From Pseudomonas sp. (GTDB lineage Bacteria; Pseudomonadota; Gammaproteobacteria; Pseudomonadales; Pseudomonadaceae): a stretch of 24,000 bases of DNA. The notes beneath the pieces are model-generated. The model was not told the DNA's origin, did no database searches, and saw only the letters and a list, made by a program, of their open reading frames with translations. Shown piece by piece: positions 5,710-24,000 of the stretch. The stretch lies in contig NZ_JBLXAP010000002.1 in the NCBI RefSeq assembly GCF_048265905.1, positions 103,796-127,795 on the forward strand, read 5' to 3'. Made by a program: the position numbers and the translations under genes. Positions within the stretch are counted from its first letter, which is position 1, and the number at the start of each line of letters is the position of its first letter.

Positions 5710-5762
5710 ATCAACGGCTTAAAACGAGCTAACTTTCGTTTGATCTATTGATAACTTCAAAA

Positions 5763-8491: not shown

Positions 8492-8505
8492 CGGCTGGGG
8501 ATAGA

Positions 8506-8537
8506 AAAGATGGAAACCTTCCTGATTTTCCATCTTT
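8506..8537 (+). terminator. Stem-loop after glmS (AAAGATGGAAA / TTTCCATCTTT); the predicted attTn7 insertion point, about 25 bp past the stop, falls in its loop
   Basis: An 11-bp perfect inverted repeat starting 15 nt after the glmS stop. The stem is A/T-rich and ends in TTT. The Tn7 insertion position is taken from established TnsD/glmS biology, not from the sequence. Confidence 0.5.
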
Positions 8538-8543
8538 GGTATG

Positions 8544-8577
8544 GGGGATGTGGATAACTTGAGTTGTCCACATCCCC
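8544..8577. repeat. Inverted repeat GGGGATGTGGA-N12-TCCACATCCCC containing a perfect DnaA box (TGTGGATAA 8549-8557) and a one-mismatch box (TTGTCCACA 8564-8572)
   Basis: Read directly. The arms are 11 bp and perfect. Confidence 0.8.
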
Positions 8578-8945
8578 TAAGCGGTTCGTATCCAGTCTGA
8601 GCCTGTAGCTATAAGCCTTTATGTTCTGCCAAGTGCTGTACTTGCGCCCAGAGACCTGCTGGTTTTGGACTACGCTGGCTGAATATCTCGTTTCGTCCAC
8701 ATCCTGACCTCAACCACATCTGCCTGTCGCACCAGCGGTTCGCGCGTAGCGGAACTGCGTCACAAAAAATACAGTTATTTCACTCACTTAACCGCTAAGT
8801 AAGCCTGTTTTGAACGGCTAGTTATTTAGCGTTAGCGCCTTAGTGTGAATTGTTCCAAGTCGCTATCTAAAGTATTGCTAGTGTAACTGTACTCGCGCCT
8901 AAGCCTTTGATTAAAAACGTTAAATATTTGGCGCCAAGGAAAGGT

Positions 8946-10277
8946 ATGCTTAATGATACGGGTGCACCGCGGCGCCTCTTGGTCGTCGATCCATGTGATG
9001 ATTGCCGCTCGCTATTACCAAGTCTTCGTGAGGCAGGCTGGACCGTGGAAGGCTGCCTGCTTGAGCATGCAGAGGAGCGTGAATGCGATGTCGGTTTGAT
9101 CCGGCTCAATGAAATGCACTTGCGTCGCCCTGCCGCAATCAAGCAACTGTTAAGCCGCAGTGGTACTGAGTGGATTGCAGTGCTTAGCCCTGACTTGCTG
9201 TCTTCGGTTAATACCCTTGGTGAGTTTGTGGGCGAGTGGTTTTTTGACTATCACACCTTGCCGTTTGACGTGTCTCGGGTGCATGTGACCTTGGGCCGAG
9301 CCTACGGCATGGCAAGGCTACGTGGACGAAAAAGCGGCATCATTGATGATCATGAAAATGAGCTGCTTGGTCAGAGCGCGCCCATCCGTGATTTACGTAA
9401 ATTGCTGGCTAAACTTGCGCCGACTCATTCTCCGGTATTGATCCGTGGTGAAAGCGGTACGGGTAAAGAGTTAGTCGCAAGAACCTTGCACCGCCGTTCG
9501 AGCCGAGCAGGTAAGCCGTTTATTGCGATCAACTGCGGAGCAATTCCTGAGCACTTAATTCAGTCAGAATTATTTGGTCACGAGAAAGGTGCATTTACCG
9601 GCGCACATCAACGCAAAATCGGCCGGATTGAATCGGCAGACGGCGGCACGCTGTTTCTTGATGAAATTGGCGATTTACCCCTTGAGTTGCAGGCTAACCT
9701 GCTGCGTTTTCTGCAAGAGAAACAAATAGAGCGGGTGGGAGGGAGCCAGCCAATATCGGTTGACGTTAGGGTTCTGGCTGCAACTCACATCGATCTTGAA
9801 GCCGCGATCGATAACGGCAGTTTCCGCGAAGACCTGTATTACCGCCTTAATGTCCTGCAGGTGCATACCGCCGCTTTGCATGAGCGAGCGGCGGATATTC
9901 CGATGTTGGCAAATTACTTCGCCAGTCTATACAGCGCCGAAACTGGTCGGCGGGCCAAGCGCTTTAGTGAAGAAGCATTGAAGCAGTTAGCTGAGCACAA
10001 ATGGCCCGGTAATGTCCGTGAGTTGGCGAATCGAGTGCGGCGAGGTTTGGTGTTGGCAGAGGGGCGTCAGATCGAAGCCAAGGATCTTGGTCTTGAACAA
10101 TGCAGCATTCTTATTGAGCGGCTTGGCACCTTGGAAGACTACAAGCGCAAAGCAGAGATTCAGGCGCTCAGCGATGCAATGGCGAGGTATCCTGAGAACT
10201 GTAGCCAGGCGGCCCGCGGCTTGGGTATCTCACGGCCGACATTTTATCGCTTGCTGCATAAGCACCAGATTCGCTGA
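8946..10277 (+). CDS. Sigma54-dependent transcriptional activator (bacterial EBP) with a degenerate receiver-like N-terminal domain
   Basis: The AAA+ core has Walker A GESGTGKE, an intact GAFTGA loop (HEKGAFTGAH), Walker B LFLDEIGD and the FREDLYYRLNV motif. The C-terminus has a Fis-type HTH (CSQAARGLGISRPTFYRLL). The N-terminal ~125 aa look REC-like (LLVVDPCDD...), but the usual phospho-acceptor position reads DVGLIRLNE. I placed the start at ATG 8946 (AAGGA 5 nt upstream) rather than the TTG at 8907. Confidence 0.9.
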   Translation: MLNDTGAPRRLLVVDPCDDCRSLLPSLREAGWTVEGCLLEHAEERECDVGLIRLNEMHLRRPAAIKQLLSRSGTEWIAVLSPDLLSSVNTLGEFVGEWFFDYHTLPFDVSRVHVTLGRAYGMARLRGRKSGIIDDHENELLGQSAPIRDLRKLLAKLAPTHSPVLIRGESGTGKELVARTLHRRSSRAGKPFIAINCGAIPEHLIQSELFGHEKGAFTGAHQRKIGRIESADGGTLFLDEIGDLPLELQANLLRFLQEKQIERVGGSQPISVDVRVLAATHIDLEAAIDNGSFREDLYYRLNVLQVHTAALHERAADIPMLANYFASLYSAETGRRAKRFSEEALKQLAEHKWPGNVRELANRVRRGLVLAEGRQIEAKDLGLEQCSILIERLGTLEDYKRKAEIQALSDAMARYPENCSQAARGLGISRPTFYRLLHKHQIR

Positions 10278-10289
10278 GGTTGCTTAGGC

Positions 10290-10493
10290 TCAGAGCCTGA
10301 AAAAATAGGGAAGAGCTATAAGTGAGCAACCAATCGCAACCATCAGCAAAGTGCTGCTAATGAAGTACGGAAACAGCATCAGCCCCAATCCGCAAATAAA
10401 AGGCATGGTTCTACTGCGCTTTCGCCCGTAGATAAAAAAGCCCAGCCCGACCGAGCCGAATACTAATCCCCAGAGCATTGCTTGAGTATCCAC
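10290..10493 (-). CDS. Small hydrophobic protein with two predicted TM helices, trailing the fap operon
   Basis: The ORF-track entry is 10290..10541. The sequence ...MLWGLVFGSVGLGFFIYGRKRSRTMPFICGLGLMLFPYFISSTLLMVAIGCSLIALPYFFRL has two hydrophobic stretches separated by a basic loop. The start is uncertain: GTG 10493 has GGCGAGG upstream, and ATG 10478 and GTG 10541 are alternatives. It is on the same strand as fapF and 58 nt downstream of it. Confidence 0.45.
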   Translation of the reverse strand: MDTQAMLWGLVFGSVGLGFFIYGRKRSRTMPFICGLGLMLFPYFISSTLLMVAIGCSLIALPYFFRL

Positions 10494-10543
10494 AACAACC
10501 TCGCCTGAACGGTGCTTGGATTGATTGCATAGTAGGCGCACGA

Positions 10544-10599: not shown

Positions 10600-11856
10600 C
10601 TAGAAGTAGTAAGGAAATCTGACGCTGAATGTAAAGTCGGGGGCATCAGGTGTCAGGCCGATGGATAGGTTGGGCACGATGCTCAGGTTTTCATCGAACG
10701 CATAGGTCATGCCGATGTTGTAATACGCGGCATTGGCATCACTGCTTGGCACTGAAGTGAAGCTTTGACCTTCAGCTTTGACTTTGCTTTTTTGCGAAAG
10801 CAGTTGCGAGTAAGACATCGACAAGCTCATGCGCTCGTTAAGCGCAAAGGCCATGCCTAAGCCGAATTGGAACCAGTTACCCAGCTGCACCGTTCCGGGT
10901 TGTTTGACCCCGCGGGTGGAGCTGATGTCGCTGTAGTCTTCCTCCAGGTTGTAGGTGTACGACAGGTTGCCGAAGAGCACGGCTGGGTCAACGGTTTTGA
11001 CCAGCGATATGCCTGGCGTAATTGACCAGACGCCGTTGCCGGTTGGCAGCTCTTCTGGAACCGTCAAGTTGTCGTTGCCGGGCACCTGTTGCAGCTTGAT
11101 ACCGTAAGGATCTTTACCTGTAGGCGCCTTGACTCGCAGGCTCAGCACTGCATCTGGGCGGCTTTCTGTTTCAGTCAGGAATTTATAGGCGATACCGGCG
11201 CTGACATCGCCAATTTCAGGGTTGCGGGTGACGGTTTCTTCAGAGATGGATGTGCTCGCGCCGCCTGCGCCAGCCGACTCAAATGTAGTCTCGCGGTACA
11301 CCACAGGCACGTTGAGGTCGAACTGCCAGCGGTCATGCCAGTTATAGCGGCCAGTCAGGTCGAGGGTTAAGGTGTCAGAGTTAATCTGGTCGACACCGAT
11401 GTTGCCGAGAAAGATGGTGTCGAGGGCCAAGAAACCGTTAAGAAACAGTTGCCTGCTGTCGTAGTGGCTGTAGGTCAGGCCTGTTTCGAAACTGAAGGTG
11501 CCCGTACCGAAGAAGCCGCTGGCCTCGTTGTAAATATTCTCAACGCTGCGTGCTGGCGCTGCATCATCTTGCAGGCTGGTGCCGTAACCGGCATCCCCTG
11601 ATTTGGCCACAGTCTCGCTGCGTCCGGTTGCAGGAATCGGGCGAAGCAGTGGTTTTTGAACGGGTTGCGACTCAACTTGTTTGAGTCGTTGCTCAAGCAC
11701 CATCAGGGCTTTTTGTTGTGCGTCGTAGTGTTGTTTGAGTAGTTCGAGTTGTTGTTTTAATGCGTCTACTTCAGCATCAGTTGCGGCCATCAAGCTGGGG
11801 GCCGCAACAGCGCTAGCCGCACACATAACCAAGCAAACAGACAGGTGCTTCGGCAT
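10600..11856 (-). CDS. fapF: Fap amyloid secretion outer-membrane beta-barrel (FapF-like)
   Basis: A 418-aa protein with a signal peptide ([24 protein letters not shown]) and an N-terminal coiled-coil-like segment ([36 protein letters not shown]). A linker and a beta-strand-rich region follow, ending in the OMP-type aromatic terminus ...FSVRFPYYF. It is the last gene in the fapABCDEF order. Confidence 0.8.
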
Positions 11857-11904
11857 GGTAAGACTTCCGTTTCAGATCAGTCACAAATCCAGCCTAGACG
11901 ATAT

Positions 11905-12666
11905 TTACAGCCCTGTTGGACGCAAATTGTTAAGTTGGTTCCAATTACAATTCAAACCATTCGCCGTCGGCATATTTTCTTTGAGCAATACGTTGAGCGC
12001 GGCGAAGTTGGTGACAGTATTACGTGAGCCATAAATGTCGGTACGTTGAACTGCGCCGCCTGCGCCAAGCTGCTGCAGACTAGCGCCTTGACCGTTAGCA
12101 TCGATTGCCAACTGCAAGCCGCCACCCATTGGGCTGACCTTTACCGTGCCAAGATCGCTGGTCTGCTGCACACTGCTGACTAACTGTGATCCGGACATGA
12201 CAGCAGGCGCCGTATTGCCGTGGCTGACATCGATATTGAGGTTGTTGTAGCTGGTGTTTAAGTCACCGGCAGAACGGGTCGTCTGCACCACACCCTGAAC
12301 ATTATTGAGGCTGTTGCCACCGCTTAGCTGGCCGGTTCCTTGGGCGGGCGAGTTGCCCACTCCAGCGGCGATAGTTGCGGCCGCAGCATCATTGTTGCCC
12401 TGCTTGAATGTGGTGATGTTGAACACCGGCTTGATGCTTTGCTGGATTTGCATATCAACCTTGGCGCCGAGTACTTGGCCACTCGCGTTTTGCCACGTGC
12501 TGGCCATGGTTACACCAAAATTCACAATTCTTCCTGGCAGTACATAGCGGCCCCGTAGTTGCGATAATTCCTGATCACTCAGTTCAGCAGGAACAAACAG
12601 TCCTGTGGCGTGAAGTGGCAGGCTGGCAACCAGGCAGATGGTTGCCACACACAGTTGAGTCTTCAT
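11905..12666 (-). CDS. fapE: Fap system secreted accessory / minor fibril component (FapE-like)
   Basis: It has a signal peptide (MKTQLCVATICLVASLPLHA) and a Gly/Asn/Gln/Ser-rich body, and sits between the C39 peptidase gene and the barrel gene. I chose ATG 12666 as the start (GGAG 6 nt upstream). The alternative ATG 12678 overlaps the fapD stop (TAATG). Confidence 0.65.
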   Translation of the reverse strand: MKTQLCVATICLVASLPLHATGLFVPAELSDQELSQLRGRYVLPGRIVNFGVTMASTWQNASGQVLGAKVDMQIQQSIKPVFNITTFKQGNNDAAAATIAAGVGNSPAQGTGQLSGGNSLNNVQGVVQTTRSAGDLNTSYNNLNIDVSHGNTAPAVMSGSQLVSSVQQTSDLGTVKVSPMGGGLQLAIDANGQGASLQQLGAGGAVQRTDIYGSRNTVTNFAALNVLLKENMPTANGLNCNWNQLNNLRPTGL

Positions 12667-12677
12667 GTCGTGCTCCA

Positions 12678-13358
12678 TTAAAAGAAGTCACTTTGTATAA
12701 AGCCGAACTCCATCAACTCGGCATCATTCACCGGTTTGAAGCGATCCAGCCGATTGCGCGCAGTTAGTGGCTGCGGCGGGTCAGTGAGTGGGTTATTGCG
12801 GTCATAGCCAGCCCCAATCACTGCGAAAACAATACCGTTCCAACCTTGCTTGAACTCCTCGAGCTTGTAGCGCTTGTGACCCAAGACCGGGTCGCCGATA
12901 TAGGCCCAGTTGTCTTCGGTTTTCTGCAGCACCACGAAATGCTTGTAGCCGCGCACATCGATCAGCACCACCACCGGCACTTTGATTTGTTCAAGTTGTT
13001 CGGCAGGAATGCGATAACCGCGGGCGCGCAGGCCAATGGCTTCGACATAACGCTTCATGTCGAGCATTGAGAAACCCTGGCTGCGAACCAGGTCGAGGTC
13101 TGCTTGTTGCAGCATGCCTTCGATCACGGTTTGTTCATCGATGTCGAAGCGATAACCCTGATACAGAATGGTCGCCAAGGATGCAGCGCCGCAGCTGAAA
13201 TCAGTTTTTTGTTCAATCAGATTGCTAAAGCGTCGTTCGCGAAAGCTCTCGACGTTCTTGAATGCCAAGGCACCACCCGGTAGCACCGGAAAGCCCAGTT
13301 GAGCAGAGTAGGATGCAGGGCAAACCAGCATGATCAGGACAACGAGAAGGGTGCGCAT
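12678..13358 (-). CDS. fapD: Periplasmic C39-family cysteine peptidase (FapD-like)
   Basis: It has a signal peptide and C39 catalytic signatures: Q..DFSCGAASLATIL (Cys), GYKHFVVL (His) and YIGDP (Asp). This is the position of fapD in the operon. Confidence 0.85.
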   Translation of the reverse strand: MRTLLVVLIMLVCPASYSAQLGFPVLPGGALAFKNVESFRERRFSNLIEQKTDFSCGAASLATILYQGYRFDIDEQTVIEGMLQQADLDLVRSQGFSMLDMKRYVEAIGLRARGYRIPAEQLEQIKVPVVVLIDVRGYKHFVVLQKTEDNWAYIGDPVLGHKRYKLEEFKQGWNGIVFAVIGAGYDRNNPLTDPPQPLTARNRLDRFKPVNDAELMEFGFIQSDFF

Positions 13359-13370
13359 AAGTCAGTCCTT

Positions 13371-13406
13371 GTAAAAGAAAGGGACTCCGAAACCTCCGGA
13401 GTCCCC
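13371..13406 (-). terminator. Strong intrinsic terminator or attenuator inside the fap operon, between fapC and fapD
   Basis: The minus strand reads GGGACTCCG-GAGGTTT-CGGAGTCCC followed by TTTCTTTTAC: a 9-bp GC-rich stem, a 7-nt loop and a U-tract. It starts about 10 nt after the fapC stop and ends about 13 nt before the fapD RBS. Confidence 0.75.
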
Positions 13407-13415
13407 AGGACTTGC

Positions 13416-14429
13416 TTAGTAGCGAAGCGACTCGCCGCCGCCAGAACCGCCAGCTGGGCACGAGGTGCAGCCTGCAGCAATCGACAGGGAGTTGCTTTGC
13501 TGGTTACCAGCACCCGCCGCCACGTTGACACCGACGTTACCCGAAACACGGTTCAGTGAGCCGCTGAGCACTGCAGTGTTAACCACTGGAGTGTTGAAGC
13601 CAGCTACAACCGGGATATTGCCTGAGACCACACCGAGCAGGCCGATCACACCTTCTTCGTTGAAGGCCAGTGCGCCGCCGTCATCGTTAAGGTCTTGAGC
13701 GCCTTGGGCGTCGCTATCAAGATCTACGTGACCGGTGTTGCTGCCACCTGGGTGACCTTCACCTTCCCAAGAGTCGAGATAGACATCGCCAATCTGGTCA
13801 GACTTGCCTTTGTAGCCACCAATAGCGGCCATGCCCAAGGTGACTTTTGCAGAGCCATAGTCAAGGGTGGCATTGTTGTTGGTGGTGTTGCCAGAAATAG
13901 ACTGAGTGGCTGTGCTGCTGGCGGTAGAGAACGCGCCGGCAGAGACGGCTGCAGCCATGTCGTTTTTCTGTTGGTTATAAGTACCAGCTGCAATGTTGGC
14001 ACCGACGTTACCACTGGCGCCGTTAAGCGAGTTGGTAAGCGCTGCTGTACTTGGGTTGGAGAAGTTTTTCACGCCGTTGTTGGTCAGCTTCTGGTTAACA
14101 GTAGTTGACGCCTCGGCGGTACCAAAGACAAAGCTTGCATCAGCACTGGCAAGTGCTGCGGCGTTGGCTTGTTGGTTATTGGTACCTGCAACAACGTTGA
14201 TACCGACGTTACCCGAGGCGCCTGCCCCAACGTCATCAACGCCTGCAGCGTTTTCAGTGCCTTCGTTACGTACGCCGTTATTTTTGATGATCTGGGTATC
14301 GTCAACAGTTGCGGATGCACCTGTTTCAGGGAACCAAGATTTTTTTTGATCAGCTTGTACGGTTGTCGCTGCCATGGCTACTGCCAAAGCGAGTGCCAGC
14401 GGCGTCATTACTACCATTTTAGTTTTCAT
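13416..14429 (-). CDS. fapC: Major functional-amyloid subunit (FapC-like)
   Basis: A 337-aa protein with signal peptide MKTKMVVMTPLALALAVAMAATTVQA. It has three imperfect repeats sharing SGNVG(I/A/V)N(V/I)(V/A)AG..NQQ.N, arranged as R1, short linker, R2, ~100-aa linker, R3. A C-terminal CxxC (AAGCTSCPAGG) is present, as described for FapC. Confidence 0.85.
   Translation of the reverse strand: MKTKMVVMTPLALALAVAMAATTVQADQKKSWFPETGASATVDDTQIIKNNGVRNEGTENAAGVDDVGAGASGNVGINVVAGTNNQQANAAALASADASFVFGTAEASTTVNQKLTNNGVKNFSNPSTAALTNSLNGASGNVGANIAAGTYNQQKNDMAAAVSAGAFSTASSTATQSISGNTTNNNATLDYGSAKVTLGMAAIGGYKGKSDQIGDVYLDSWEGEGHPGGSNTGHVDLDSDAQGAQDLNDDGGALAFNEEGVIGLLGVVSGNIPVVAGFNTPVVNTAVLSGSLNRVSGNVGVNVAAGAGNQQSNSLSIAAGCTSCPAGGSGGGESLRY
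13470..13622 (-). repeat. FapC imperfect repeat R3 (approximate bounds; core RVSGNVGVNVAAGAGNQQSNSLSIAA)
   Basis: Protein-level repeat aligned by eye. It is followed directly by the CxxC tail. Confidence 0.7.
13935..14093 (-). repeat. FapC imperfect repeat R2 (approximate bounds; core GASGNVGANIAAGTYNQQKNDMAAAV)
   Basis: Protein-level repeat aligned by eye to R1 and R3. Confidence 0.7.
14130..14288 (-). repeat. FapC imperfect repeat R1 (approximate bounds; core GASGNVGINVVAGTNNQQANAAALA)
   Basis: Protein-level repeat. The DNA core CACCGACGTTACC (plus strand) recurs in all three repeats. Confidence 0.7.
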
Positions 14430-14491
14430 GGTGTATCTCCTTGCCTTGCTGTGTTGGACTTAGGACTTACTCACTTGTGTTGCGCTCAGGG

Positions 14492-15073
14492 TTAATCACT
14501 GACCCTGATACTGAGGTTGTTCCCCATGCGGTTCCCGACCCCAGCACTCTGGTTCAATTGCACGACTCCACGGCTCCCGACAAACGCAGTGTCATCGGTT
14601 GCTACGTGTCGCTCCCCAGTGGAGGGCGCAACTGTTCCTGAGATTTGTGTAATGGCCACGCTTTGCGACAGCACCGAGTCATCCAGGCTGGTTGGCCCCG
14701 AACTCACGCTGATACTTAATGCATTGGCCTGTTGTGTTCCTGCGCCTGCGGATTGGTTGATACCGAGGACGCCGTTACCTGAATTGAATGCGCCAGCCCC
14801 AATGGCCACGCCTGCGTCTTGAGAGCTGTCGACGCCATGAATATTCAGGTTTTGAATTTGTTGGGTCGAAGCGCTGGCGCCGTTACCAATTGCCAGTGCT
14901 CTTGCATTGCTTTGCTGTTGCGATTCGCCAGCCGCTTGGTTGACCGAAACAACGCCCTGATAGTGACTGGCGCTGTTGGTGATATTGGCTTGGTTGATCG
15001 TTTCGGCCAGAGCCGTGGTAGAAAGCGCAGCGCTGCAAACAGCGAGCGTGATTAACAAGGGCAGGGTTCTCAT
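14492..15073 (-). CDS. fapB: Amyloid nucleator-type subunit (FapB-like)
   Basis: A 193-aa protein with signal peptide MRTLPLLITLAVCSAALSTTALA. It has three repeats related to those of FapC: GVVSVNQAAGESQQQSNARALAIG, GVLGINQSAGAGTQQANALSISV and GVVQLNQSAGVGNRMGNNLSIRV. Its start is coupled to the fapA stop (TGAGATG). Confidence 0.8.
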   Translation of the reverse strand: MRTLPLLITLAVCSAALSTTALAETINQANITNSASHYQGVVSVNQAAGESQQQSNARALAIGNGASASTQQIQNLNIHGVDSSQDAGVAIGAGAFNSGNGVLGINQSAGAGTQQANALSISVSSGPTSLDDSVLSQSVAITQISGTVAPSTGERHVATDDTAFVGSRGVVQLNQSAGVGNRMGNNLSIRVSD

Positions 15074-15074
15074 C

Positions 15075-15575
15075 TCACTGGCCTCCGGTAAGCATGTTCA
15101 GAGGTGCCAGTCCGCGTTGAACGGTGCTGTTGATGGTGCTGCCCAGGCCACTGCCCGCGTTGCCGCCTGAATGCCCTGCTGAGCCGGTGTTGGTGGCGCC
15201 TTGATGATTGGCTTGGTCTGTGCCGAGTGCGTTGAAACCTGCAAGATTGCCGTTGGGCAAGATCATCGAGTTGATGCTGGAGCCCGTGGTGATGTTGGCG
15301 AAGTCAGCATCTCCCAGCTCACCACCCATCTGGGTGTTGTTGAGGGTGCCATTGACTGTCGTGACGACTTGCCGAGAAATGTTGGTGTTAACCACCGTTG
15401 GATTGGGGTCGGGAATGTCAGTGGGATGTGTTGCAAGGCGCGGCTGAACCTGGCGACCCAATACGATAATGCCGTCCTGGGCGAACGTAGGTGCAACGTA
15501 GATGCTTGAAAGCATCACAAGCGCTACGGCCAGTAATGACGATTGGAATGACCCTGAACTGTTTGTACGTTCCAT
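15075..15575 (-). CDS. fapA: Secreted, low-complexity protein in the FapA position (putative Fap chaperone/regulator)
   Basis: I placed the start at the internal ATG 15575 (GAAGGA 9 nt upstream), which gives the signal peptide MERTNSSGSFQSSLLAVALVMLSSIYVAPTFAQ. The Asn/Gly/Thr-rich body looks disordered. It is the first gene of the cluster and directly abuts fapB. The assignment rests mainly on position. Confidence 0.6.
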   Translation of the reverse strand: MERTNSSGSFQSSLLAVALVMLSSIYVAPTFAQDGIIVLGRQVQPRLATHPTDIPDPNPTVVNTNISRQVVTTVNGTLNNTQMGGELGDADFANITTGSSINSMILPNGNLAGFNALGTDQANHQGATNTGSAGHSGGNAGSGLGSTINSTVQRGLAPLNMLTGGQ

Positions 15576-15653
15576 GACATCAATTCCTTCTACATCTCTT
15601 CTTGCGCATTGAAGATGTGCAATGCAACTCTGCGGTTGGTTGTGTCGAAGTGT

Positions 15654-15670
15654 TCGCAGGAGTCGTGCCG
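15654..15670 (-). promoter_or_regulatory. Candidate sigma54 (-24/-12) promoter for fapA
   Basis: The minus strand reads CGGCACGACTCCTGCGA, compared with the consensus TGGCACG-N4-TTGCW. GGCACG is perfect, the GG-N10-GC spacing is exact, and there are 3 flanking mismatches. The predicted TSS is near 15644, giving a leader of about 69 nt to ATG 15575. Confidence 0.6.
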
Positions 15671-15689
15671 GAATTGTTTTTTCTTGGAA

Positions 15690-15702
15690 TATCAACGAGT
15701 TA
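15690..15702. promoter_or_regulatory. IHF consensus site TATCAACGAGTTA (WATCAANNNNTTR) between the promoter and the upstream palindromes
   Basis: An exact match to the IHF core consensus with an adjacent T-rich tract (TTGTTTTTTCTT). It is centred roughly at -50 relative to the predicted TSS. Confidence 0.5.
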
Positions 15703-15734
15703 GATTTTGTTGTAGCAGGCGGGGCTAAACACAG

Positions 15735-15752
15735 TGTTTCACCGATGAGACA
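15735..15752. promoter_or_regulatory. Palindrome 1: TGTTTCA-CCGA-TGAGACA (candidate enhancer/UAS)
   Basis: Read directly. It is one of three related 18-bp dyads (TGTTWCA-N4-TGARACA) and lies about 90-110 bp upstream of the predicted fapA TSS. Confidence 0.6.
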
Positions 15753-15814
15753 CTACGGTTTAGGTGTATGAGGTTTATCCGTGTCTGACCAAGCGAGGCA
15801 TGCACTTAACGGGG

Positions 15815-15832
15815 TGTTACACGGATGAAACA
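15815..15832. promoter_or_regulatory. Palindrome 2: TGTTACA-CGGA-TGAAACA (candidate enhancer/UAS)
   Basis: Read directly. Its centre is 80 bp from the centre of palindrome 1. Confidence 0.6.
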
Positions 15833-15887
15833 GTTACGCAGAAAAAGCGGCAAAGCGGCGTAAACAGCGGGTGCTGACTCGCGGATG

Positions 15888-15905
15888 TGTTTCATTGCTG
15901 AGACA
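15888..15905. promoter_or_regulatory. Palindrome 3: TGTTTCA-TTGC-TGAGACA (candidate enhancer/UAS)
   Basis: Read directly. Its centre is 73 bp from palindrome 2, and 15 of 18 positions are identical to palindrome 1. Confidence 0.6.
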
Positions 15906-16151
15906 GACGCGACCAACCAATGAGACCGTTTTATGTGTGAGCGTGATTAACTCGATAAGTTCGGTGCAATTGGCCGGTGTAGATAGGTTGCGGATTGTCC
16001 TGCGGTCAAGGTTGCAGTGCAGCCGGGAGTAGGGGCTGCAGTTTATTTAAATGACGTTGTAACGAATATGGTCTATCCCTCTCTATTGATATGTCGCGCA
16101 CAAACAACTTCTGTGCGGCTGGCGTATTACAATTAATCCGAGGATGTACAC

Positions 16152-16415
16152 ATGACTAACAAAACTACACTTGCTGCTACCGGTGCTGCTATCGCGTTCA
16201 CTGCTGCAACCATGTTTGCAACCATGGCCAGCACTGTTGTTGTCGCTGAAGATTCGCCTGTTCAATGCTTTGGTGTTAACGCATGCAAAGGACAGAATGA
16301 CTGCAAAACTGCTGATAACGCCTGTAAAGGCCAGGGCATCTGTAAAGGCCATGGCTTCAAAGCGATGTCTTTGGCTGATTGCAATGCTGCCAAGGGTCGC
16401 GTTGGCGAAGAGTAA
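16152..16415 (+). CDS. bufA: Bufferin-type RiPP precursor (DUF2282-like / 6-Cys type) with a Sec signal peptide
   Basis: An 87-aa ORF with GAGGA 8 nt upstream. It has the signal peptide MTNKTTLAATGAAIAFTAATMFATMASTVVVA. The core is EDSPVQCFGVNACKGQNDCKTADNACKGQGICKGHGFKAMSLADCNAAKGRVGEE, with six Cys. It lies immediately upstream of DUF692 and DUF2063 genes. Confidence 0.8.
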   Translation: MTNKTTLAATGAAIAFTAATMFATMASTVVVAEDSPVQCFGVNACKGQNDCKTADNACKGQGICKGHGFKAMSLADCNAAKGRVGEE

Positions 16416-16425
16416 GATTGCAGCA

Positions 16426-16463
16426 ACAGGGAGCAGCCATCAGTTGATGGCTGCTCCTGTTTT
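16426..16463 (+). terminator. Stem-loop plus short T-run between the precursor and enzyme genes (candidate attenuator)
   Basis: ACAGGGAGCAGCCATCA / TGATGGCTGCTCCTGT forms a stem of about 16 bp with one bulged G, followed by TTTT. It lies 10 nt after the bufA stop and 30 nt before bufB. Confidence 0.6.
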
Positions 16464-16492
16464 ACTGTCCGGATCTAACCAAGGAGCTTGGC

Positions 16493-17338
16493 ATGCCAGC
16501 TAAGTCAGACTGTCTTGGCTACGGCCTAGGGCTGCGAATTCCCTATTATCAGGAAATCCTGGAGCAACGACCTGATGTCGATTGGTTCGAGGTGATTTCT
16601 GAAAATTTCATGATTGAGGGCGGCAAAGCCCTTTATCACCTGGATGCGGTCGCCGAGCACTATCCAATAGTGATGCACGGCGTATCGCTGTCTATTGGCG
16701 GTCCACACGAGCTGGATCGCGATTACCTCAAACGTCTAAAGCTGCTGGCAGAGCGAGTTAAACCGCAATGGATCTCTGACCACCTGTGCTGGAGCCGCGG
16801 TAATGCCCATCACCTGCACGATTTGCTACCACTGCCTTTCACTGATGAAAGTTTGCAGCACGTAGCGGCGCGAGTTCATCAGGTACAGGACGTTATTGAG
16901 CGTCCGCTGGTGCTGGAAAATGCTTCAACCTATATCCGCAGCGCTGGCGACAAGTTCACCGAGTGGGAGTTTCTCTCGGAACTGACGGCAATCACTGGCT
17001 GCGATTTACTGCTGGATGTGAACAACGTTTACGTCAGTGCGCGTAATCATGATTTTGACCCATGGACCTACATCAGCAGTTTGCCTGTGGATAAAATCCG
17101 CCAGCTGCATTTGGCCGGGCACACCGATTACGGCAATTATCTGATTGATACTCACGATCACCCGGTATGTGACCCTGTTTGGCAGTTGTACGAGCGCACT
17201 ATCAAACATCTGGGGCCGGTCGCGACCATGATCGAGCGTGATGACCATTACCCTCCATTTGCTGAGCTGATGGCCGAACTGCAAAAAGCCCGCGAGCTAG
17301 GCGCTAAAGCACTTCAGGCGGAGTCATTATGCGGTTGA
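16493..17338 (+). CDS. bufB: DUF692 / MNIO (multinuclear non-heme iron oxidative) enzyme, BufB/MbnB-like
   Basis: A 281-aa ORF with AAGGAG RBS. It has the typical DUF692 blocks DWFEVISENF, VMHGVSLSIGG, WISDHLCW, PLVLENAS, LLLDVNNVYVSARNH, LHLAGH, IDTHDHPV and MIERDD. Confidence 0.88.
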   Translation: MPAKSDCLGYGLGLRIPYYQEILEQRPDVDWFEVISENFMIEGGKALYHLDAVAEHYPIVMHGVSLSIGGPHELDRDYLKRLKLLAERVKPQWISDHLCWSRGNAHHLHDLLPLPFTDESLQHVAARVHQVQDVIERPLVLENASTYIRSAGDKFTEWEFLSELTAITGCDLLLDVNNVYVSARNHDFDPWTYISSLPVDKIRQLHLAGHTDYGNYLIDTHDHPVCDPVWQLYERTIKHLGPVATMIERDDHYPPFAELMAELQKARELGAKALQAESLCG

Positions 17339-18153
17339 GTCAGTGGCAGCAAGAGATTGAAACCTATTTGCTTGGGGCTGACTCGGTTGCCAATTCTGAA
17401 TTGCGCGCCACGCTGGTGGGCAGCGCGAACCTTGATGTCGATCTGGGCTTGGCGATTTATCACAACGCCTATCGTGCACGGCTGATCGAAACCCTGCGCG
17501 GCGATTACAGCGCGGTGCATGGTTGGATGGGCGACGAAGAATTTGATGCACTGGCGCTGGCCTATATCAATGCCTATCCGCCCGATCATTTCAGCCTGCG
17601 TTGGCTGGGTGCCCGGTTTGCCGAGTTCATCGAGGCTCATCTGATACCTGAGCAAGCCGAACCATTGGCCGAGTTGGCGCGTTTTGAGTGGGCGTTCACC
17701 CTGTCATTCGATGCAGCAGATGGCCAGCCGCTAACAGAAGCTTTGCTCGCCAGCTTGCAGGCTGATGAGTGGCCAAATCTGCAAACACGCTTGTTGCCAA
17801 GCGTGCAGTGGCAAACGTTGCGTTATAACACCCTGGCGTTATGGCGCGCGTTGAAAGACGACAGCGAATTTCCAGGCAGTCACGCGCTGGAGCAAGTGTC
17901 AGTATGCTTGATTTGGCGCAATGGTTTGATTAGCCGCTATCGCACGCTTGCACCTGATGAAGCCAGTGCGCTCTACAAAATGGCAGTGCAAGGCGGCAGC
18001 TTTGCCGAGCTCTGCGCTGACCTTACACCTCTAGGTGATAACGCAATGGGTCAGGCAATTACATGGATTCGCCAGTGGCTGGCTGACGGAACCTTGCAGC
18101 GTCACATTGGTGAGCCAGTCGTCTATCAGGTCGATAGCTTCATCAATCAATAA
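17329..18153 (+). CDS. bufC: DUF2063-family partner protein (BufC-like)
   Basis: A 274-aa ORF whose ATG overlaps the bufB 3' end by 10 nt, suggesting translational coupling. The N-terminal motif region (YHNAYRARLIETLRGDY..V....GDEEF..LA..YI...P) is typical of DUF2063 proteins paired with DUF692. Confidence 0.8.
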   Translation: MRLSQWQQEIETYLLGADSVANSELRATLVGSANLDVDLGLAIYHNAYRARLIETLRGDYSAVHGWMGDEEFDALALAYINAYPPDHFSLRWLGARFAEFIEAHLIPEQAEPLAELARFEWAFTLSFDAADGQPLTEALLASLQADEWPNLQTRLLPSVQWQTLRYNTLALWRALKDDSEFPGSHALEQVSVCLIWRNGLISRYRTLAPDEASALYKMAVQGGSFAELCADLTPLGDNAMGQAITWIRQWLADGTLQRHIGEPVVYQVDSFINQ

Positions 18154-18196
18154 GCTGAGCTACGCTTTTTGTTGTTAGCAAAAAGCGGAGGTTCAC

Positions 18197-19381
18197 ATGA
18201 TTCAATTTATACCGCCGGTATTACGAAGCCTGCAATTGCCGTTGCGCTTGAAATTGTGGGACGGCAAACAGCTTGATCTCGGCCCTCAGCCGCAGGTTAC
18301 GCTGGTGATCAAGGATCCCAGCCTCGTAGTGCAACTGAGCAATCCAAGTCTCGACGTTCTTGGAGGCGCTTATGTTGAGGGTCGTGTTGAGTTAGAAGGC
18401 AAGATGAGTGACATCATTAAGGTCGGTGTCGACCTCAGTGAAGCGCTGGTGCCTGACGACAGCCCCGCCGCGGTTGAACATGAGCGACATGACAAAGCCA
18501 CTGATGCTGCCGCCATAAGTTATCACTACGACCTGTCCAACGAGTTTTATGCACTCTGGCTCGACCCGGAGATGGTCTATTCGTGCGGCTATTTTGCAGC
18601 CGGTAGCGAGTCTTTGGAGCAAGCCCAGTTGGAAAAAATACGCTTGTTGTGCCGAAAGCTGCGCCTGCAACCGGGCGATAAGCTGCTTGATGTCGGTTGT
18701 GGTTGGGGCGGCTTTGCACGCTTGGCTGCCCGCGAGTTTGGTGCAGAGGTTTATGGCATTACCCTCAGTGCCGAGCAACTGAAATTGGCGCGCGAGCGAG
18801 TTGCCGAGCAAGGCCTGGACGATCAGGTAGAGCTGCAACTGATGGATTATCGCGACCTGCCGCAAGATGGGCGATTCGATAAAGTGGTCAGTGTCGGTAT
18901 GTTTGAGCATGTGGGTTACGCCAATCTACCGGAGTATTGCCAGTGCCTGTATGGCGCGGTCAAACCCGGCGGCCTGGTGATGAACCACGGTATTACCGCG
19001 CGCCATACAGATGGTCGTGCGGTTGGCCACGGTGCGGGTGACTTTATCGGCAAATATGTTTTTCCACATGGCGAACTGCCCCATCTTTCTGTCATGACTG
19101 CTGCGCTGAGTGACGCAGGATTGGAAGTGGTTGATGTCGAAAGCTTGCGCCTGCATTACGCGCGTACCTTGAACTTTTGGAGTGAAAGGCTTGAGACGCA
19201 ACTCGATAAAGCTGCGCTAATGGTTCCAGAACAAGCGTTGCGAATTTGGCGTTTGTATCTGGCGGGTTGCGCGTATGGTTTTGCCCAAGGCTGGATGAAC
19301 TTGCACCAAATATTGGCGGTTAAACCACTCTTGAATGGCGGTCATAATTTGCCGTGGTCGCGTGCGGATATCTATTCTTGA
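18197..19381 (+). CDS. Cyclopropane-fatty-acyl-phospholipid synthase family SAM-dependent methyltransferase
   Basis: A 394-aa ORF with GGAGG RBS, 43 nt after bufC. It has CMAS-family blocks: HYDLSNEFYALWLDPEMVYSCGYF, SAM-binding LLDVGCGWGG, VSVGMFEHVG and LRIWRLYLAGCAYGF. Confidence 0.85.
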   Translation: MIQFIPPVLRSLQLPLRLKLWDGKQLDLGPQPQVTLVIKDPSLVVQLSNPSLDVLGGAYVEGRVELEGKMSDIIKVGVDLSEALVPDDSPAAVEHERHDKATDAAAISYHYDLSNEFYALWLDPEMVYSCGYFAAGSESLEQAQLEKIRLLCRKLRLQPGDKLLDVGCGWGGFARLAAREFGAEVYGITLSAEQLKLARERVAEQGLDDQVELQLMDYRDLPQDGRFDKVVSVGMFEHVGYANLPEYCQCLYGAVKPGGLVMNHGITARHTDGRAVGHGAGDFIGKYVFPHGELPHLSVMTAALSDAGLEVVDVESLRLHYARTLNFWSERLETQLDKAALMVPEQALRIWRLYLAGCAYGFAQGWMNLHQILAVKPLLNGGHNLPWSRADIYS

Positions 19382-19484: not shown

Positions 19485-21239
19485 ATGCCTGCTTTTTTTC
19501 TTCGATACCGCGTTGGACTTACCGTTCTGCTGATTGCCATTGGCCTGCTTGGCAGTATGTGGTTGGCCGGGCGCTATGCACAGCAACGCGCCTGGCAGGA
19601 GCGTAGCGTCGAGGCGCGCGGCCAGTTACAGCTGTATGCGCAATCCATACACACTTTGGTTGAGCGTTTTAGCTCGGTGCCTGAGGTGCTCTCACTCGAC
19701 AGCGATATCAAAGCGGTGCTCAGCTCGCCGGATGATCTGTTGCTGCGAGCCGCGCTTAATCATCGGTTAGAGCAATTGAATCGGGCTGCCGGTTCCAATG
19801 TGCTTTATCTACTTAATGTTGAGGGTGACACGCTAGCGGCCAGCAACTGGCGTGAGTGGAGCAGCTTTGTCGGCAATAACTATGCATTCCGCCCCTATTT
19901 TCGTGACGCGCTAAAGCAGTCTTCAGGGCGTTATTTTGCGGTAGGGGTGACGACGGGGATACCCGGCTACTTTCTTTCCCATGTGGTGCTCGACGACCAC
20001 GATCAAATCATTGGCGTATTGGTGGTCAAGCTTGAGCTTGAAGAACTGCAGCGCGAATGGGTCGAGCAATCGGGTATCTTGCTGGTGGCCGATACTTATA
20101 ACGTAGTAATTCTGAGTAATCGCCCTGCATGGCGCTTTCGAACATTGAGCGAACTGAGTGATCAAGCGCGAAATGAGCTGATTGAGGTGCGAAAATATGC
20201 GGAACAAGCGCTAAAACCACTTCCCAGCAAGTTGCGTTTGCAGATTAACCCCGAGTCACAATGGCGTACCGTCGATGGTCCGGACGGTAAGCAGGATTAT
20301 CTCTGGCAGAGCCAGCAATTGGCGGACGAAGGCTGGAACCTGTACTTGCTGGTTGAGCCACAAAGTGTGGTCGACAGTGTGCGCAGCTATCGCTTGGCTG
20401 GCGCAGGTGTATGGATGACCCTGGCATTCTTACTGCTGTTCCTGCTCCAGCGGCGTAAAAATCATCGCCTGCAAGCGAGTATCCGTGAGCGTTTAGAACA
20501 GGAAGTTAGCCTGCGCACAGCAGAGCTGCGCGAAGCCCAGGACGGTTTGGTGCACGCGGCGAAAATGGCAGCCTTGGGGCAAATGTCTGCAGCGATGGCG
20601 CATGAAGTTAATCAACCGCTTACAGCCATGCGCATGCAATTGGGGAGTTTACGCTTGCTACTCGACAGCGGGCGCCAAACGGATGTGTATGCAGGCTTGC
20701 AACGTATCGATGGTTTGCTTGAGCGTATGGCTTCATTGACGAGCCATTTGAAAACCTTTGCCCGCAAAAGTCCGGCCGGGCTCAGTGAGCGCTTGCAGCT
20801 TGGCGAGGTTCTGGATCAGGCGCTACAGCTGTTAACGCCGCGAATACGTAGCGAAAGTGTGCAACTCCGCAGTCAAGTTGATTACAACGTTCATGTTCTG
20901 GGTGATGCTATTCGCCTTGAGCAGGTGTTGCTCAACTTACTCAATAACGCTTTGGATGCCATGACTGAGATTGAAAATGCACAGCTTGAGGTGGTTATCC
21001 AGCGTTGTGCTGAGCAATGCGTGCTGACGGTCGCCGATAATGGTGGTGGCATTGCTGGGGATAACTTGAGCCATGTATTCGATCCGTTCTTTACCACCAA
21101 GCCAGTCGGTCAAGGCTTGGGTTTGGGCTTGGCTGTGTCATACGGCATCGTGCAGGAATTAGGTGGCACGCTAGAAGTGTCTAACAGCGATGTTGGCGCA
21201 GTATTCACCCTGAAGCTGCCGATTGCGCCAGAGCCATAA
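19485..21239 (+). CDS. DctB-family sensor histidine kinase (periplasmic double-PDC/Cache sensor)
   Basis: A 584-aa ORF with TM1 (VGLTVLLIAIGLLGSMWLAG), a periplasmic region containing the YAFRPYFRDA...GRYFAVGVTTGIPGYFLS motif and TM2 (AGVWMTLAFLLLFLL). It also has a HisKA H-box (AAMAHEVNQPL) and HATPase N and G boxes (LLNNALDA, DNGGGI, GQGLGLGLAVS). Confidence 0.88.
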   Translation: MPAFFLRYRVGLTVLLIAIGLLGSMWLAGRYAQQRAWQERSVEARGQLQLYAQSIHTLVERFSSVPEVLSLDSDIKAVLSSPDDLLLRAALNHRLEQLNRAAGSNVLYLLNVEGDTLAASNWREWSSFVGNNYAFRPYFRDALKQSSGRYFAVGVTTGIPGYFLSHVVLDDHDQIIGVLVVKLELEELQREWVEQSGILLVADTYNVVILSNRPAWRFRTLSELSDQARNELIEVRKYAEQALKPLPSKLRLQINPESQWRTVDGPDGKQDYLWQSQQLADEGWNLYLLVEPQSVVDSVRSYRLAGAGVWMTLAFLLLFLLQRRKNHRLQASIRERLEQEVSLRTAELREAQDGLVHAAKMAALGQMSAAMAHEVNQPLTAMRMQLGSLRLLLDSGRQTDVYAGLQRIDGLLERMASLTSHLKTFARKSPAGLSERLQLGEVLDQALQLLTPRIRSESVQLRSQVDYNVHVLGDAIRLEQVLLNLLNNALDAMTEIENAQLEVVIQRCAEQCVLTVADNGGGIAGDNLSHVFDPFFTTKPVGQGLGLGLAVSYGIVQELGGTLEVSNSDVGAVFTLKLPIAPEP

Positions 21240-21349
21240 GGCTGGGGTGATCCAATGGTACCTGCTCACAGTTTCAGCGGATTGTTCAAATCGAGACTAC
21301 CAAGTCAGGCTCATGGCGATACACTGCGCGCGTTCAAGTTGGAGGGTGT

Positions 21350-22693
21350 ATGAGCAGTCAGGTGTTGGTTGTTGATGATGAAGTGGCAATCCGCGAAGCC
21401 GTGCAGCAATGGCTGGAGCTTTCTGGTTTCAGTGTGCAAACCTGTTCAAGCGCTGCTCAGGCGCTGGCTTTGGTTGATCGGGATTTCCCCGGCGTAGTCA
21501 TCAGCGATGTGCGCATGCCTGGTACTGACGGCCTGCAACTGCTGGAAAAGTTGATCGAGCTTGATCGTGATCTGCCAGTGATTATGGTCACAGGCCATGG
21601 TGATGTGCCGATGGCTGTGCAAGCCCTGCATCAGGGCGCTTATGATTTCATCGAGAAACCATTTACCCCTGAACGTCTGCTCGACAGCGTGCGCCGCGCC
21701 CTTGAAAAGCGGCGTTTGGTCTGTGAAAACCGTGAGCTGCGCCAACAGTTTGCAAATAAAGATCGAATTGAAAGTCAGCTGCTCGGCGTTTCGCGACCTA
21801 TGGAAAATCTGCGTCGACAGATTCTTGAGCTGGCCGGCACCTCGGTGAATATCCTGATTCGCGGCGAGACCGGTAGCGGCAAAGAACGGGTTGCGCGTTG
21901 TTTGCATGATTTCAGCGCGCGAGCGGGCAAGCCGTTTGTGGCGTTGAACTGCGCGGCGATCCCCGAGAACTTGTTCGAGAGTGAGTTATTCGGCCACGAA
22001 AGCGGTGCCTTTACTGGTGCGCAAGGCAGGCGGATTGGTCGTATCGAGCACGCTGACGGAGGCACTCTATTCCTTGATGAAATCGAGAGTCTGCCACTGG
22101 CTCAGCAAGTAAAGCTGTTACGCGTTCTGCAGGAAAAGACCCTTGAACGGCTGGGTTCAAATCGCAGCATTCAAGTGGATTTGCGGGTGATTAGCGCCGT
22201 TAAGCCGGATTTACTCGATGAAGTGCGCAACGGTCGCTTCCGTGAGGATTTGTTCTACCGGCTAAACGTTGCAACCCTGCAAGTTCCAGCCTTATGTGAT
22301 CGTCGTGAAGATATTCCGCTGCTGTTTGAGCACTTCGCCCAAGAGGCCGCACATCGTCATGGTCGTGAAGTTTCGCCGCTACCGGCCACCGAGCTGGCAC
22401 GTTTGCTCGGGCATGACTGGCCGGGCAATGTGCGTGAGCTGATAAACGCCGCTGAACGCCATGCATTGGGCTTAAGCGCGCCGGTTGAGGCGTTTGCCAG
22501 CCAGTCGTTGGCTGAGCAGATGGAAAGCTTTGAAGCGCAATGCCTGCATAACGCCTTGTTGCACTGTCAGGGCAATATTGCTCGGGTCATGGAGTTGCTG
22601 CAGCTACCACGGCGCACGCTCAACGAGAAAATGCAGCGCCATGGCTTGCAGCGCAGCAGCTATCGTCCGGCGGGCAGTCAAGATGATGAATAG
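21350..22693 (+). CDS. DctD-family sigma54-dependent response regulator
   Basis: A 447-aa ORF with GGAGGG RBS. The receiver is canonical (VLVVDDE..., VISDVRMPGTDG, VIMVTGHGD). It has Walker A GETGSGKE, GAFTGA, FREDLFYRLNV and a C-terminal HTH (GNIARVMELLQLPRRTLNEKM). Confidence 0.9.
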   Translation: MSSQVLVVDDEVAIREAVQQWLELSGFSVQTCSSAAQALALVDRDFPGVVISDVRMPGTDGLQLLEKLIELDRDLPVIMVTGHGDVPMAVQALHQGAYDFIEKPFTPERLLDSVRRALEKRRLVCENRELRQQFANKDRIESQLLGVSRPMENLRRQILELAGTSVNILIRGETGSGKERVARCLHDFSARAGKPFVALNCAAIPENLFESELFGHESGAFTGAQGRRIGRIEHADGGTLFLDEIESLPLAQQVKLLRVLQEKTLERLGSNRSIQVDLRVISAVKPDLLDEVRNGRFREDLFYRLNVATLQVPALCDRREDIPLLFEHFAQEAAHRHGREVSPLPATELARLLGHDWPGNVRELINAAERHALGLSAPVEAFASQSLAEQMESFEAQCLHNALLHCQGNIARVMELLQLPRRTLNEKMQRHGLQRSSYRPAGSQDDE

Positions 22694-22709: not shown

Positions 22710-22791
22710 GCGTGATCGGTTATAGGCGGATTGTTGCCGGTATTCGGTTGTTCATTTGTCAAAACCCCTCTAGAGCAGGACTTTCACGTAT

Positions 22792-22807
22792 TGGCACGGC
22801 ATCTGCT
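22792..22807 (+). promoter_or_regulatory. Strong candidate sigma54 (-24/-12) promoter
   Basis: TGGCACGGCATCTGCT compared with the consensus TGGCACG-N4-TTGCW. TGGCACG is perfect, the spacing is exact, and there is one mismatch in the -12 element. It lies downstream of a DctD-type EBP and upstream of the TAXI-TRAP gene. Confidence 0.7.
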
Positions 22808-23071
22808 AAGTTTGATGTAACCCGTTTTTTGTTTACGGGTAATCCAATAAGAAAGACTAGAGGTTTGCCATGAATCATCTTGCCTATTGCGTAAGTCATT
22901 CGCACATAACAGCAAACGCCTTCTCCAGTGCGCCGGGCAATATGCCTCGCGTAAGCGAAAGCTTATTTCTGACGCTCCAATAAGATCTGACGCCTGCCAG
23001 CCTCTTTGCAGGGGGCATCGTCTACAGTGAAAAACTCTGCATAAAGCCATAACAACGACGGAGATTCATCC

Positions 23072-24000
23072 ATGCGATTGACCAAGCGTTTAAGCCTGTT
23101 CGCAGCTGCCGCAACCCTGACTGCAAGCACTGCAGTTCTGGCAGCCCCAACCTTTATCAACATCCTCACGGGCGGCACCAGCGGTGTTTACTACCCGATT
23201 GGTGTTGGCCTGTCGCAGATCTACAGCAACGGCATTGAAGGTTCGAAAACCTCAGTTCAAGCGACCAAGGCGTCGGTTGAGAACCTCAACTTGCTGCAAG
23301 CAGGCCGTGGTGAGCTGGCGCTGGCGCTGGGTGATTCTGTTGCTGACGCCTGGAACGGTGTCGAAGAGGCGGGCTTTAAAGCACCGCTGAAAAAGCTGCG
23401 GGCGATTGCCGGTACTTACCCGAACTACATTCAGATCGTTGCCAACAAAGAGTCGGGCATCAAAACCCTGGCTGACCTGAAAGGCAAAAGCATCTCGGTT
23501 GGCGCACCTAAATCAGGGACTGAGCTGAATGCTCGGGCAATCCTCAAAGCAGCTGGTTTGACCTATGAAGACATGGGCAAAGTTGAGTTCTTGCCGTATG
23601 CCGAGTCGGTCGAGCTGATCAAAAACCGCCAGCTTGACGCTACTCTGCAGTCTTCGGGCCTGGGCATGGCGGCTATTCGTGACCTCGCGGCTACCTTGCC
23701 AATCAACTTCGTGTCGGTTCCAGCTGATGTGGTTGCCAAGATTGGTAACGATGCTTATCAGCCGGCCAGCATCCCAGCGGGCACTTACGACGGTCAGGAC
23801 GCTGACGTTCCAACGGTTGCCATCACTAACATCCTGGTGAGCCATGAAGGTGTTTCTGAAGAAACCGCCTACCAAATGACCAAGCTGATGTTTGAAAACC
23901 TTGAGCGTTTGGGTAATGCCCACTCCGCGGCCAAGGACATCAAGTTGGAAACCGCTGCCAAGAACCTGCCAATCCCGCTGCACCCAGGTGCGGAGCGCTA
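23072..24000 (+). CDS. TAXI-family TRAP transporter solute receptor (3' end outside the window)
   Basis: This ORF is absent from the ORF track because it has no stop within the window; I translated it by hand from ATG 23072 (GGAG 8 nt upstream). The translation reads MRLTKRLSLFAAAATLTASTAVLA/APTFINILTGGTSGVYYPIGVGLSQIY...ELALALGD...YIQIVANKESGIKTLADLKGKSISVGAPKSGTE...LPIPLHPGAERY. The GGTSGVYYPIG and PLHPGAERY blocks are TAXI hallmarks. Confidence 0.85.
   Translation, partial: MRLTKRLSLFAAAATLTASTAVLAAPTFINILTGGTSGVYYPIGVGLSQIYSNGIEGSKTSVQATKASVENLNLLQAGRGELALALGDSVADAWNGVEEAGFKAPLKKLRAIAGTYPNYIQIVANKESGIKTLADLKGKSISVGAPKSGTELNARAILKAAGLTYEDMGKVEFLPYAESVELIKNRQLDATLQSSGLGMAAIRDLAATLPINFVSVPADVVAKIGNDAYQPASIPAGTYDGQDADVPTVAITNILVSHEGVSEETAYQMTKLMFENLERLGNAHSAAKDIKLETAAKNLPIPLHPGAER

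Follow-up and report, generated by a model that had tools for sequence, protein, structure and literature searches.

Fap amyloid is a major component of the Pseudomonas biofilm matrix, and the control of its genes is best described in Pseudomonas fluorescens. Down-regulation of fap in an rpoN mutant of that species was reported by Liu et al. 2021 (PMC8202526). Guo et al. 2022 used 5'-RACE to place the fapA transcription start of strain PF07 at a conserved -24/-12 element, found fapA-E to be RpoN-dependent by RNA-seq of an rpoN mutant, and used qRT-PCR of fapA and fapC in rpoN and brfA mutants to establish dependence on both regulators (PMC9207406). The PF07 brfA gene is a 1,326-bp ORF encoding 441 aa, which adjoins fap in the opposite orientation (PMC9207406). 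Guo et al. 2024 (Microbiol Res 287:127864), as cited in PMC13101488, describe BrfA as a c-di-GMP-sensing bEBP and direct regulator of fapA, and Fap together with BrfA-type regulators as widespread in Pseudomonas. A 2026 preprint on SBW25, which also cites Guo et al. 2024, speaks of the "known BrfA-RpoN pathway" (bioRxiv 10.64898/2026.01.27.702051). Regulation by σ54 and a c-di-GMP-sensing activator explains why matrix production is tied to second-messenger levels, a point already published for P. fluorescens.

The window analyzed here, a 24,000-nt stretch of DNA from a Pseudomonas close to P. segetis, is an orthologous copy of the published PF07 BrfA/RpoN fapA system, and the regulatory model is thus already known. 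A preliminary description of the stretch was not aware of σ54-dependent activation as an established regulatory model for fap, a view overtaken by the BrfA/RpoN control published in 2022-2024 (PMC9207406; Guo et al. 2024). The gene order of the window runs from atp genes through glmU, a DeoR regulator and glmS to a σ54 EBP gene (plus strand) and fapFEDCBA (minus strand). Past a 576-bp intergenic region the bufferin-like operon, divergent from fap, comes next, and then the genes for a dCache histidine kinase and a REC-type EBP. The features that concern us are listed below by their position in the window.

8946..10277, plus strand: brfA ortholog, a σ54 EBP with a VpsR-type N-terminal domain, an AAA+ domain with GAFTGA and a C-terminal Fis-type HTH
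10600..15575, minus strand: fapABCDEF operon, from the ORF list and the tblastn gene order
10600-11856, minus strand: fapF, beta-barrel
11905-12678, minus strand: fapE
12678-13358, minus strand: fapD, C39 peptidase family match
13416-14429, minus strand: fapC, PF27129 (FapBC) on the orthologous gene
14492-15073, minus strand: fapB, PF27129 (FapBC) on the orthologous gene
15075-15575, minus strand: fapA
15670..15654, minus strand: σ54 -24/-12 promoter CGGCACGACTCCTGCGA, read from the sequence of the fap strand
15690..15702, plus strand: IHF-like site TATCAACGAGTTA, an exact match to WATCAANNNNTTR
15735..15752, no strand assigned: UAS1, the promoter-proximal dyad TGTTTCAccgaTGAGACA, centre about 100 bp upstream of the predicted start
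15815..15832, no strand assigned: UAS2, the middle dyad TGTTACAcggaTGAAACA, centre about 180 bp upstream of the predicted start
15888..15905, no strand assigned: UAS3, the distal dyad TGTTTCAttgcTGAGACA, centre about 253 bp upstream of the predicted start
16152-19381, plus strand: divergent bufferin-like operon, encoding an 87-aa BufA1-like peptide (16152-16415), MbnB, DUF2063/HvfC and a CFA-synthase-like methyltransferase

Re-reading the sequence returned the same coordinates for the -24/-12 element, the IHF site, the dyads and the 576-bp intergenic region (15576-16151) as had first been assigned. The elements themselves, their conservation and constant spacing across the genus, and the orthology and intact domains of the EBP are direct observations. 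From these we consider it very probable that the region is the cis-regulatory region of fapABCDE(F), orthologous to the BrfA/RpoN-dependent fapA promoter of PF07, and that it works by the following mechanism. The σ54 (RpoN) RNA polymerase would form a closed complex on the -24/-12 element (15654-15670), and dimers of BrfA, encoded at 8946-10277, would occupy the three dyads, of consensus TGTNTCA-N4-TGAAACA, located approximately 100, 180 and 253 bp upstream of the start. A bend introduced by IHF at 15690-15702 would bring BrfA to the polymerase, and ATP hydrolysis by its AAA+ domain, acting via the GAFTGA loop, would open the promoter. By homology with PF07 BrfA, c-di-GMP is expected to stimulate the activity of the protein. 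For the PF07 ortholog, published work has established where transcription starts, that rpoN and brfA are required and, according to the citations of Guo et al. 2024, the c-di-GMP response.

On the fap strand, exactly 10 nt separate the GG (15669-15668) and GC (15657-15656) of the -24/-12 element, and 79 nt lie between the 3' end of the motif and the fapA ATG (15575). The resulting GG-N10-GC core, GGCACGACTCCTGC at 15669-15656, has the invariant dinucleotides of a σ54 promoter, and the three mismatches to TGGCACG-N4-TTGCW all fall at weakly conserved positions (T-26, T-15 and W-11). The match by itself is not stronger than chance. Scored by simple consensus counts, the window holds 49 matches to the -24/-12 consensus at three or fewer mismatches versus 57.6 expected, and GGCAC-N6-TGC is found three times versus 2.1 expected. 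The stricter GGCACG-N5-TGC occurs only twice in the window, in both cases in an intergenic region adjoining an EBP gene. The element is credible because of its position, its orientation and its conservation in all 14 orthologous loci (see below), not because of its match score. The predicted transcription start would lie near 15644, giving a 5' UTR of approximately 69 nt.

The three dyads are imperfect inverted repeats, TGTTWCA-N4-TGARACA, each symmetric at six of seven positions, with centres 80 and 73 bp apart. They are clearly non-random: the pattern at two or fewer mismatches is found in the window at these three sites (six matches over both strands) where 0.55 matches are expected, and six was reached in none of 100 shuffles. 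All three sites are upstream of fapA, which bears out the original remark that the motif is found nowhere else in the window; relaxing the limit to three mismatches adds one site, which is the chance level. As repeated, conserved and dyad-symmetric sites some 80 to 250 bp upstream of a -24/-12 promoter, they have the properties of UASs. Three sites could accommodate three BrfA dimers that form one hexamer, and the 73- to 80-bp spacing, wide for simple hexamer assembly from three dimers, counts against this part of the model.

The IHF-like site lies between the promoter and the proximal dyad, with its centre about 52 bp upstream of the predicted start, and is a predicted site of IHF binding. 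Exact matches to the consensus WATCAANNNNTTR are in ten-fold excess in the window (5 versus 0.48 expected). The others are at 8900-8912 (minus strand), 5709-5721, 17919-17931 and 20610-20622. The first of these is 34 to 46 bp upstream of the likely brfA start codon, with neither a dyad nor a -24/-12 element beside it. Autoregulation of brfA via the same dyads was also considered and was rejected, since no dyad at three or fewer mismatches was found upstream of brfA.

To assess conservation we assembled 14 regions upstream of fapA, which represent at least 11 lineages, and anchored them on the GG of the -24 element. They comprise the window, its three close relatives (two P. segetis assemblies and Pseudomonas sp. 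RL_15y), Pseudomonas sp. M30-35, a Logan contig, Pseudomonas sp. J237, Pseudomonas sp. LS44, P. nitritireducens, P. putida, P. fluorescens, a Pseudomonas MAG, P. silensiensis and P. bharatica. The loci were gathered through exact look-ups of EBP and FapB homologs; a generic AAA+ peptide-pattern scan returned mainly unrelated EBPs, and among the 80 loci listed only L001-L003 were orthologous. The fap gene order, determined by tblastn, was the same in 10 loci. The P. aeruginosa loci (L087 and L088) were left out as they end inside fapB, because rbs genes separate brfA from fapF, and P. nitritireducens (L095) represents that group. In both P. aeruginosa loci the insertion between the brfA ortholog and fapF is a five-gene ribose (rbs-like) transport and kinase cluster.

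A GG-N10-GC element, reading CGGCAC-N5-CTGC, was present in all 14 regions (one locus has TAGC at -12), at 53 to 102 nt from the fapA start codon, and 11 of the 17 columns of the -24/-12 element reach 90% conservation or more. In the 90 bp that precede the GG, the best match to WATCAR-N4-TTR has an offset of -33/-34 on the same strand in 14 of 14 loci, exact in 10 and with one mismatch in 4. A UAS1-type TGT-N12-ACA dyad was found 81 to 85 bp upstream of the GG in every locus, a UAS2-type dyad at 161 to 168 bp in 13 (at 151 bp in the remaining one, P. fluorescens), and a UAS3-type dyad at 235 to 241 bp in 11. In fluorescens-group loci the distal dyad takes the form TGT-N11-ACA or is reduced to a TGAAACA half-site. 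A MAFFT alignment of 12 of the 14 regions contained 41 columns conserved at 90% or more; 39 of them fall inside the five elements, which make up 84 columns, and the other two are among the remaining 251 columns (Fisher p approximately 5e-25, indicative only because the aligned sequences are related). The dyad pattern at two or fewer mismatches has 27 matches in 233.6 kb of sequence from orthologous loci, and every one of them is within 450 bp upstream of fapA.

A lack of conservation of the dyads and of the GG-N10-GC element in orthologous fap loci was among the outcomes that, in the preliminary description, would have spoken against its σ54/IHF/UAS reading. With GG-N10-GC in 14 of 14 loci, dyads at fixed offsets and an adjacent EBP that is the BrfA ortholog, the comparison strongly supports that reading. 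Judged by this conservation, the fapA upstream region is a genuine, strongly conserved σ54 promoter with a predicted IHF site and three putative activator dyads.

The P. putida locus (L094; 4500-4916, 9019-12634) retains the -24/-12 element, the IHF-like site and all three dyads. A sulfatase gene follows fapF where brfA would stand, and the activator must therefore be encoded elsewhere or be a different protein.

The site-level map predicted from these comparisons has an operator of approximately TGTNTCA-N4-TGAAACA, with operators about 83, 163 and 236 bp and an IHF site 33 bp upstream of the GG, and this geometry reaches a P. aeruginosa-group species and P. putida. The BrfA literature that we searched, to which Guo et al. 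2024 did not belong, contains no description of BrfA operator sites or of an IHF site. That the map of consensus, spacing and IHF site is as yet unpublished is possible, if somewhat doubtful. If new, it would provide an operator for predicting the BrfA regulon and for designing promoter mutants in any Pseudomonas. Our comparison adds to the published model a geometry that is fixed across the genus (-24/-12 element, IHF site and two to three dyads) and bound to fapA whatever gene lies upstream, and a candidate BrfA operator with which to predict the regulon and to design reporters or mutants; it opens no new question.

The EBP encoded at 8946-10277 is the BrfA ortholog, and its link to the PF07 protein is made via length, annotation and gene order. 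It matches the Pfam families VpsR (PF20161), Sigma54_activat (PF00158, E = 5e-73), AAA_lid_14 and, with weaker support, HTH_8. The protein is 96% identical to its P. segetis counterpart and 73 to 75% identical to 441- to 442-aa proteins of P. fluorescens, P. protegens and P. aeruginosa; the identity to the 441-aa P. fluorescens protein P0047, whose gene is convergent with fapF (L089), is 73% over 96% of the length. The true start is likely the ATG at 8946, which gives 443 aa, rather than the TTG at 8907, because the orthologs have 441 to 442 aa. In an alignment of nine EBP orthologs, the Walker A sequence GESGTGKE, the GAFTGA motif and the recognition helix SRPTFYRLLHKH are all invariant, and an invariant recognition helix is thus paired with an invariant dyad half-site. 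The gene is convergent with fapF, as brfA is in PF07. In every locus that extends past fapF, with the exception of the P. putida locus, brfA adjoins the fap cluster or lies within approximately 6 kb of it.

Since the dyads sit within the 576-bp intergenic region common to the fap and bufferin operons, the preliminary description had allowed that they could serve either or both. A single shared enhancer that couples amyloid and bufferin production, or dyads that control the bufferin-like operon (16152-19381) in place of fap, would also agree with the conservation of the fap-bufferin arrangement in the segetis-like clade (the window, L081-83, L090-92 and L096). Nevertheless, our analyses make this very unlikely. 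Only the segetis-like clade has bufferin as the divergent neighbor, and the dyads, the IHF site and the promoter keep the same geometry where the neighbor is FecR (P. fluorescens, L089), bacA (LS44, L093; P. nitritireducens, L095) or an NMN transporter/AAA_28 gene (P. putida, L094). Within the bufferin-linked loci the distance from the distal dyad to the GG is fixed at 235 to 237 bp, whereas between 216 and 286 bp of unalignable sequence separate this dyad from the bufferin ATG. A search for a σ54-like element directed toward the bufferin gene found none, and the bufferin side has a separate conserved block of its own at 16040-16090. The dyads most likely serve fapA, because their distance to the fapA promoter is fixed and because they persist where the neighbor is not a bufferin gene; they track fapA, and the comparison lends no support to their also controlling the bufferin operon.

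That the promoter is σ54-dependent but a protein different from BrfA occupies the dyads is likewise improbable. Candidates for such a protein are the REC-type EBP (21350-22693), an EBP encoded elsewhere, and a repressor or nucleoid protein. In favor of this reading, the P. putida locus has the dyads and no adjoining brfA, and the window itself contains a second EBP gene 5.4 kb away. Linkage of the REC-type EBP to fap, on the other hand, is confined to the segetis-like clade while the dyads are genus-wide, and this EBP has a σ54 promoter of its own immediately downstream. The close linkage of brfA to fap outside P. putida, the invariance of both the BrfA recognition helix and the half-site, and the report that PF07 BrfA regulates fapA directly (Guo et al. 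2024, as cited in PMC13101488) argue for BrfA as the protein that binds the dyads. It is scarcely credible that the -24/-12 match arose by chance and that fapA is transcribed from an unrecognized σ70 or ECF-type promoter, with the dyads used by a classical activator. The core does occur at chance frequency within the window, but in 14 of 14 loci GG-N10-GC is present and keeps a constant spacing from the IHF site and the dyads, with unconserved flanks; the ortholog start maps to the -24/-12 promoter and fap is down in the rpoN mutant (PMC9207406, PMC8202526). A search of the fapA upstream region for a σ70-like promoter found none.

Compared with PF07, the window belongs to the same genus and has the fap operon, an EBP gene convergent just past fapF and the same order of EBP domains. 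The P. fluorescens locus L089 further shares CGGCAC-N5-CTGC, the IHF-like site and proximal dyads with the same geometry. Unlike PF07, the window comes from a P. segetis-like group of lower G+C and has a bufferin-like operon as the divergent neighbor of fap. It also has three full TGT-N12-ACA dyads, unlike the fluorescens-group loci, in which the distal site is an N11 form or a half-site.

VpsR of Vibrio cholerae is a c-di-GMP-responsive master activator of biofilm-matrix genes that uses σ70 polymerase and is not known to have a functional σ54 contact loop. The window EBP shares the VpsR-type N-terminal domain (match to structure 7v2b, E = 5.8e-65) and, unlike VpsR, has an intact GAFTGA and adjoins a -24/-12 promoter. 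FleQ of P. aeruginosa, a c-di-GMP-binding bEBP that controls matrix genes, recognizes the FleQ box GTCaNTAAAtTGAC, which is unrelated to the fapA dyads. Its AAA+ domain is among the closest solved domains to that of the window EBP (8pb9, E = 6.5e-77). R144, within LFRS, and E330 and R334, within ExxxR, which we take to be the c-di-GMP contact residues of FleQ, are not conserved in the window EBP, where only the post-Walker-A KExxxRxxH is kept. Transfer of the FleQ c-di-GMP site to this protein was rejected on these grounds, and the ligand site and binding mode of BrfA therefore cannot be deduced from FleQ.

In its layout the fapA region resembles XylR/Pu, NifA/nifH and NorR/norV, which have UAS dyads 100 to 250 bp upstream and an IHF site between UAS and promoter. 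The TGT and ACA ends of the fapA dyad recall the NifA UAS, and by analogy with NorR the three sites would supply three dimers for one hexamer. The half-site sequence and N12 spacer differ from those of the classical IHF-assisted enhancers, as does the placement of the sites, which are 73 to 80 bp apart rather than clustered.

Several further observations concern the genes around the fap operon. The conserved block TTTAAATGACGTTGTAACGAATATGGTCTATCCCTCTCTA on the bufferin side (16040-16090, plus strand), upstream of the gene at 16152-16415, is found in all six bufferin-linked loci, and its flanks are not conserved. The ATGAC-GT-TGTAAC part of it may resemble CopR/CusR-type copper boxes, a likeness that would agree with the bufferin operon being regulated independently and in response to copper. 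Bufferin operons are expected to carry a DoxX-type membrane protein. The fourth gene here (18197-19381, plus strand) encodes a cyclopropane-fatty-acid-synthase-like SAM methyltransferase (PF02353, E = 2e-104), and this arrangement is kept in all the bufferin-linked loci.

In the window (6641-10277) the brfA-fap-bufferin block is directly downstream of glmS, in the attTn7 neighborhood, and it also directly follows glmS in RL_15y (L090) and in L081, a close relative with the same EBP. It stands beside LysR/EamA genes in another P. segetis assembly and beside DUF202 genes in M30-35 (L082 and L091). These differing surroundings suggest that the block has moved between chromosomal sites.

A second near-consensus σ54 promoter, TTGGCACGGCATCTGCTAA at 22791-22809 (plus strand), lies just past the dCache histidine kinase/REC-type EBP pair (19485-22693). 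Approximately 265 nt separate it from a downstream gene for a TAXI/TRAP-type solute-binding protein (PF16868, NMT1_3; 23072-24000, running off the window), and the long leader that follows it includes a 37-codon ORF at 22870-22983. The kinase, REC-type EBP and solute-binding gene together look like a DctB/DctD-like transporter circuit. Finally, a small hydrophobic ORF of 83 aa with no Pfam match lies between brfA and fapF (10290-10541, minus strand). ORFs of 62 to 81 aa are called at the equivalent position in P. segetis, RL_15y, M30-35 and two Logan contigs, and the fap locus of this clade may thus include an accessory gene that has gone unrecognized.
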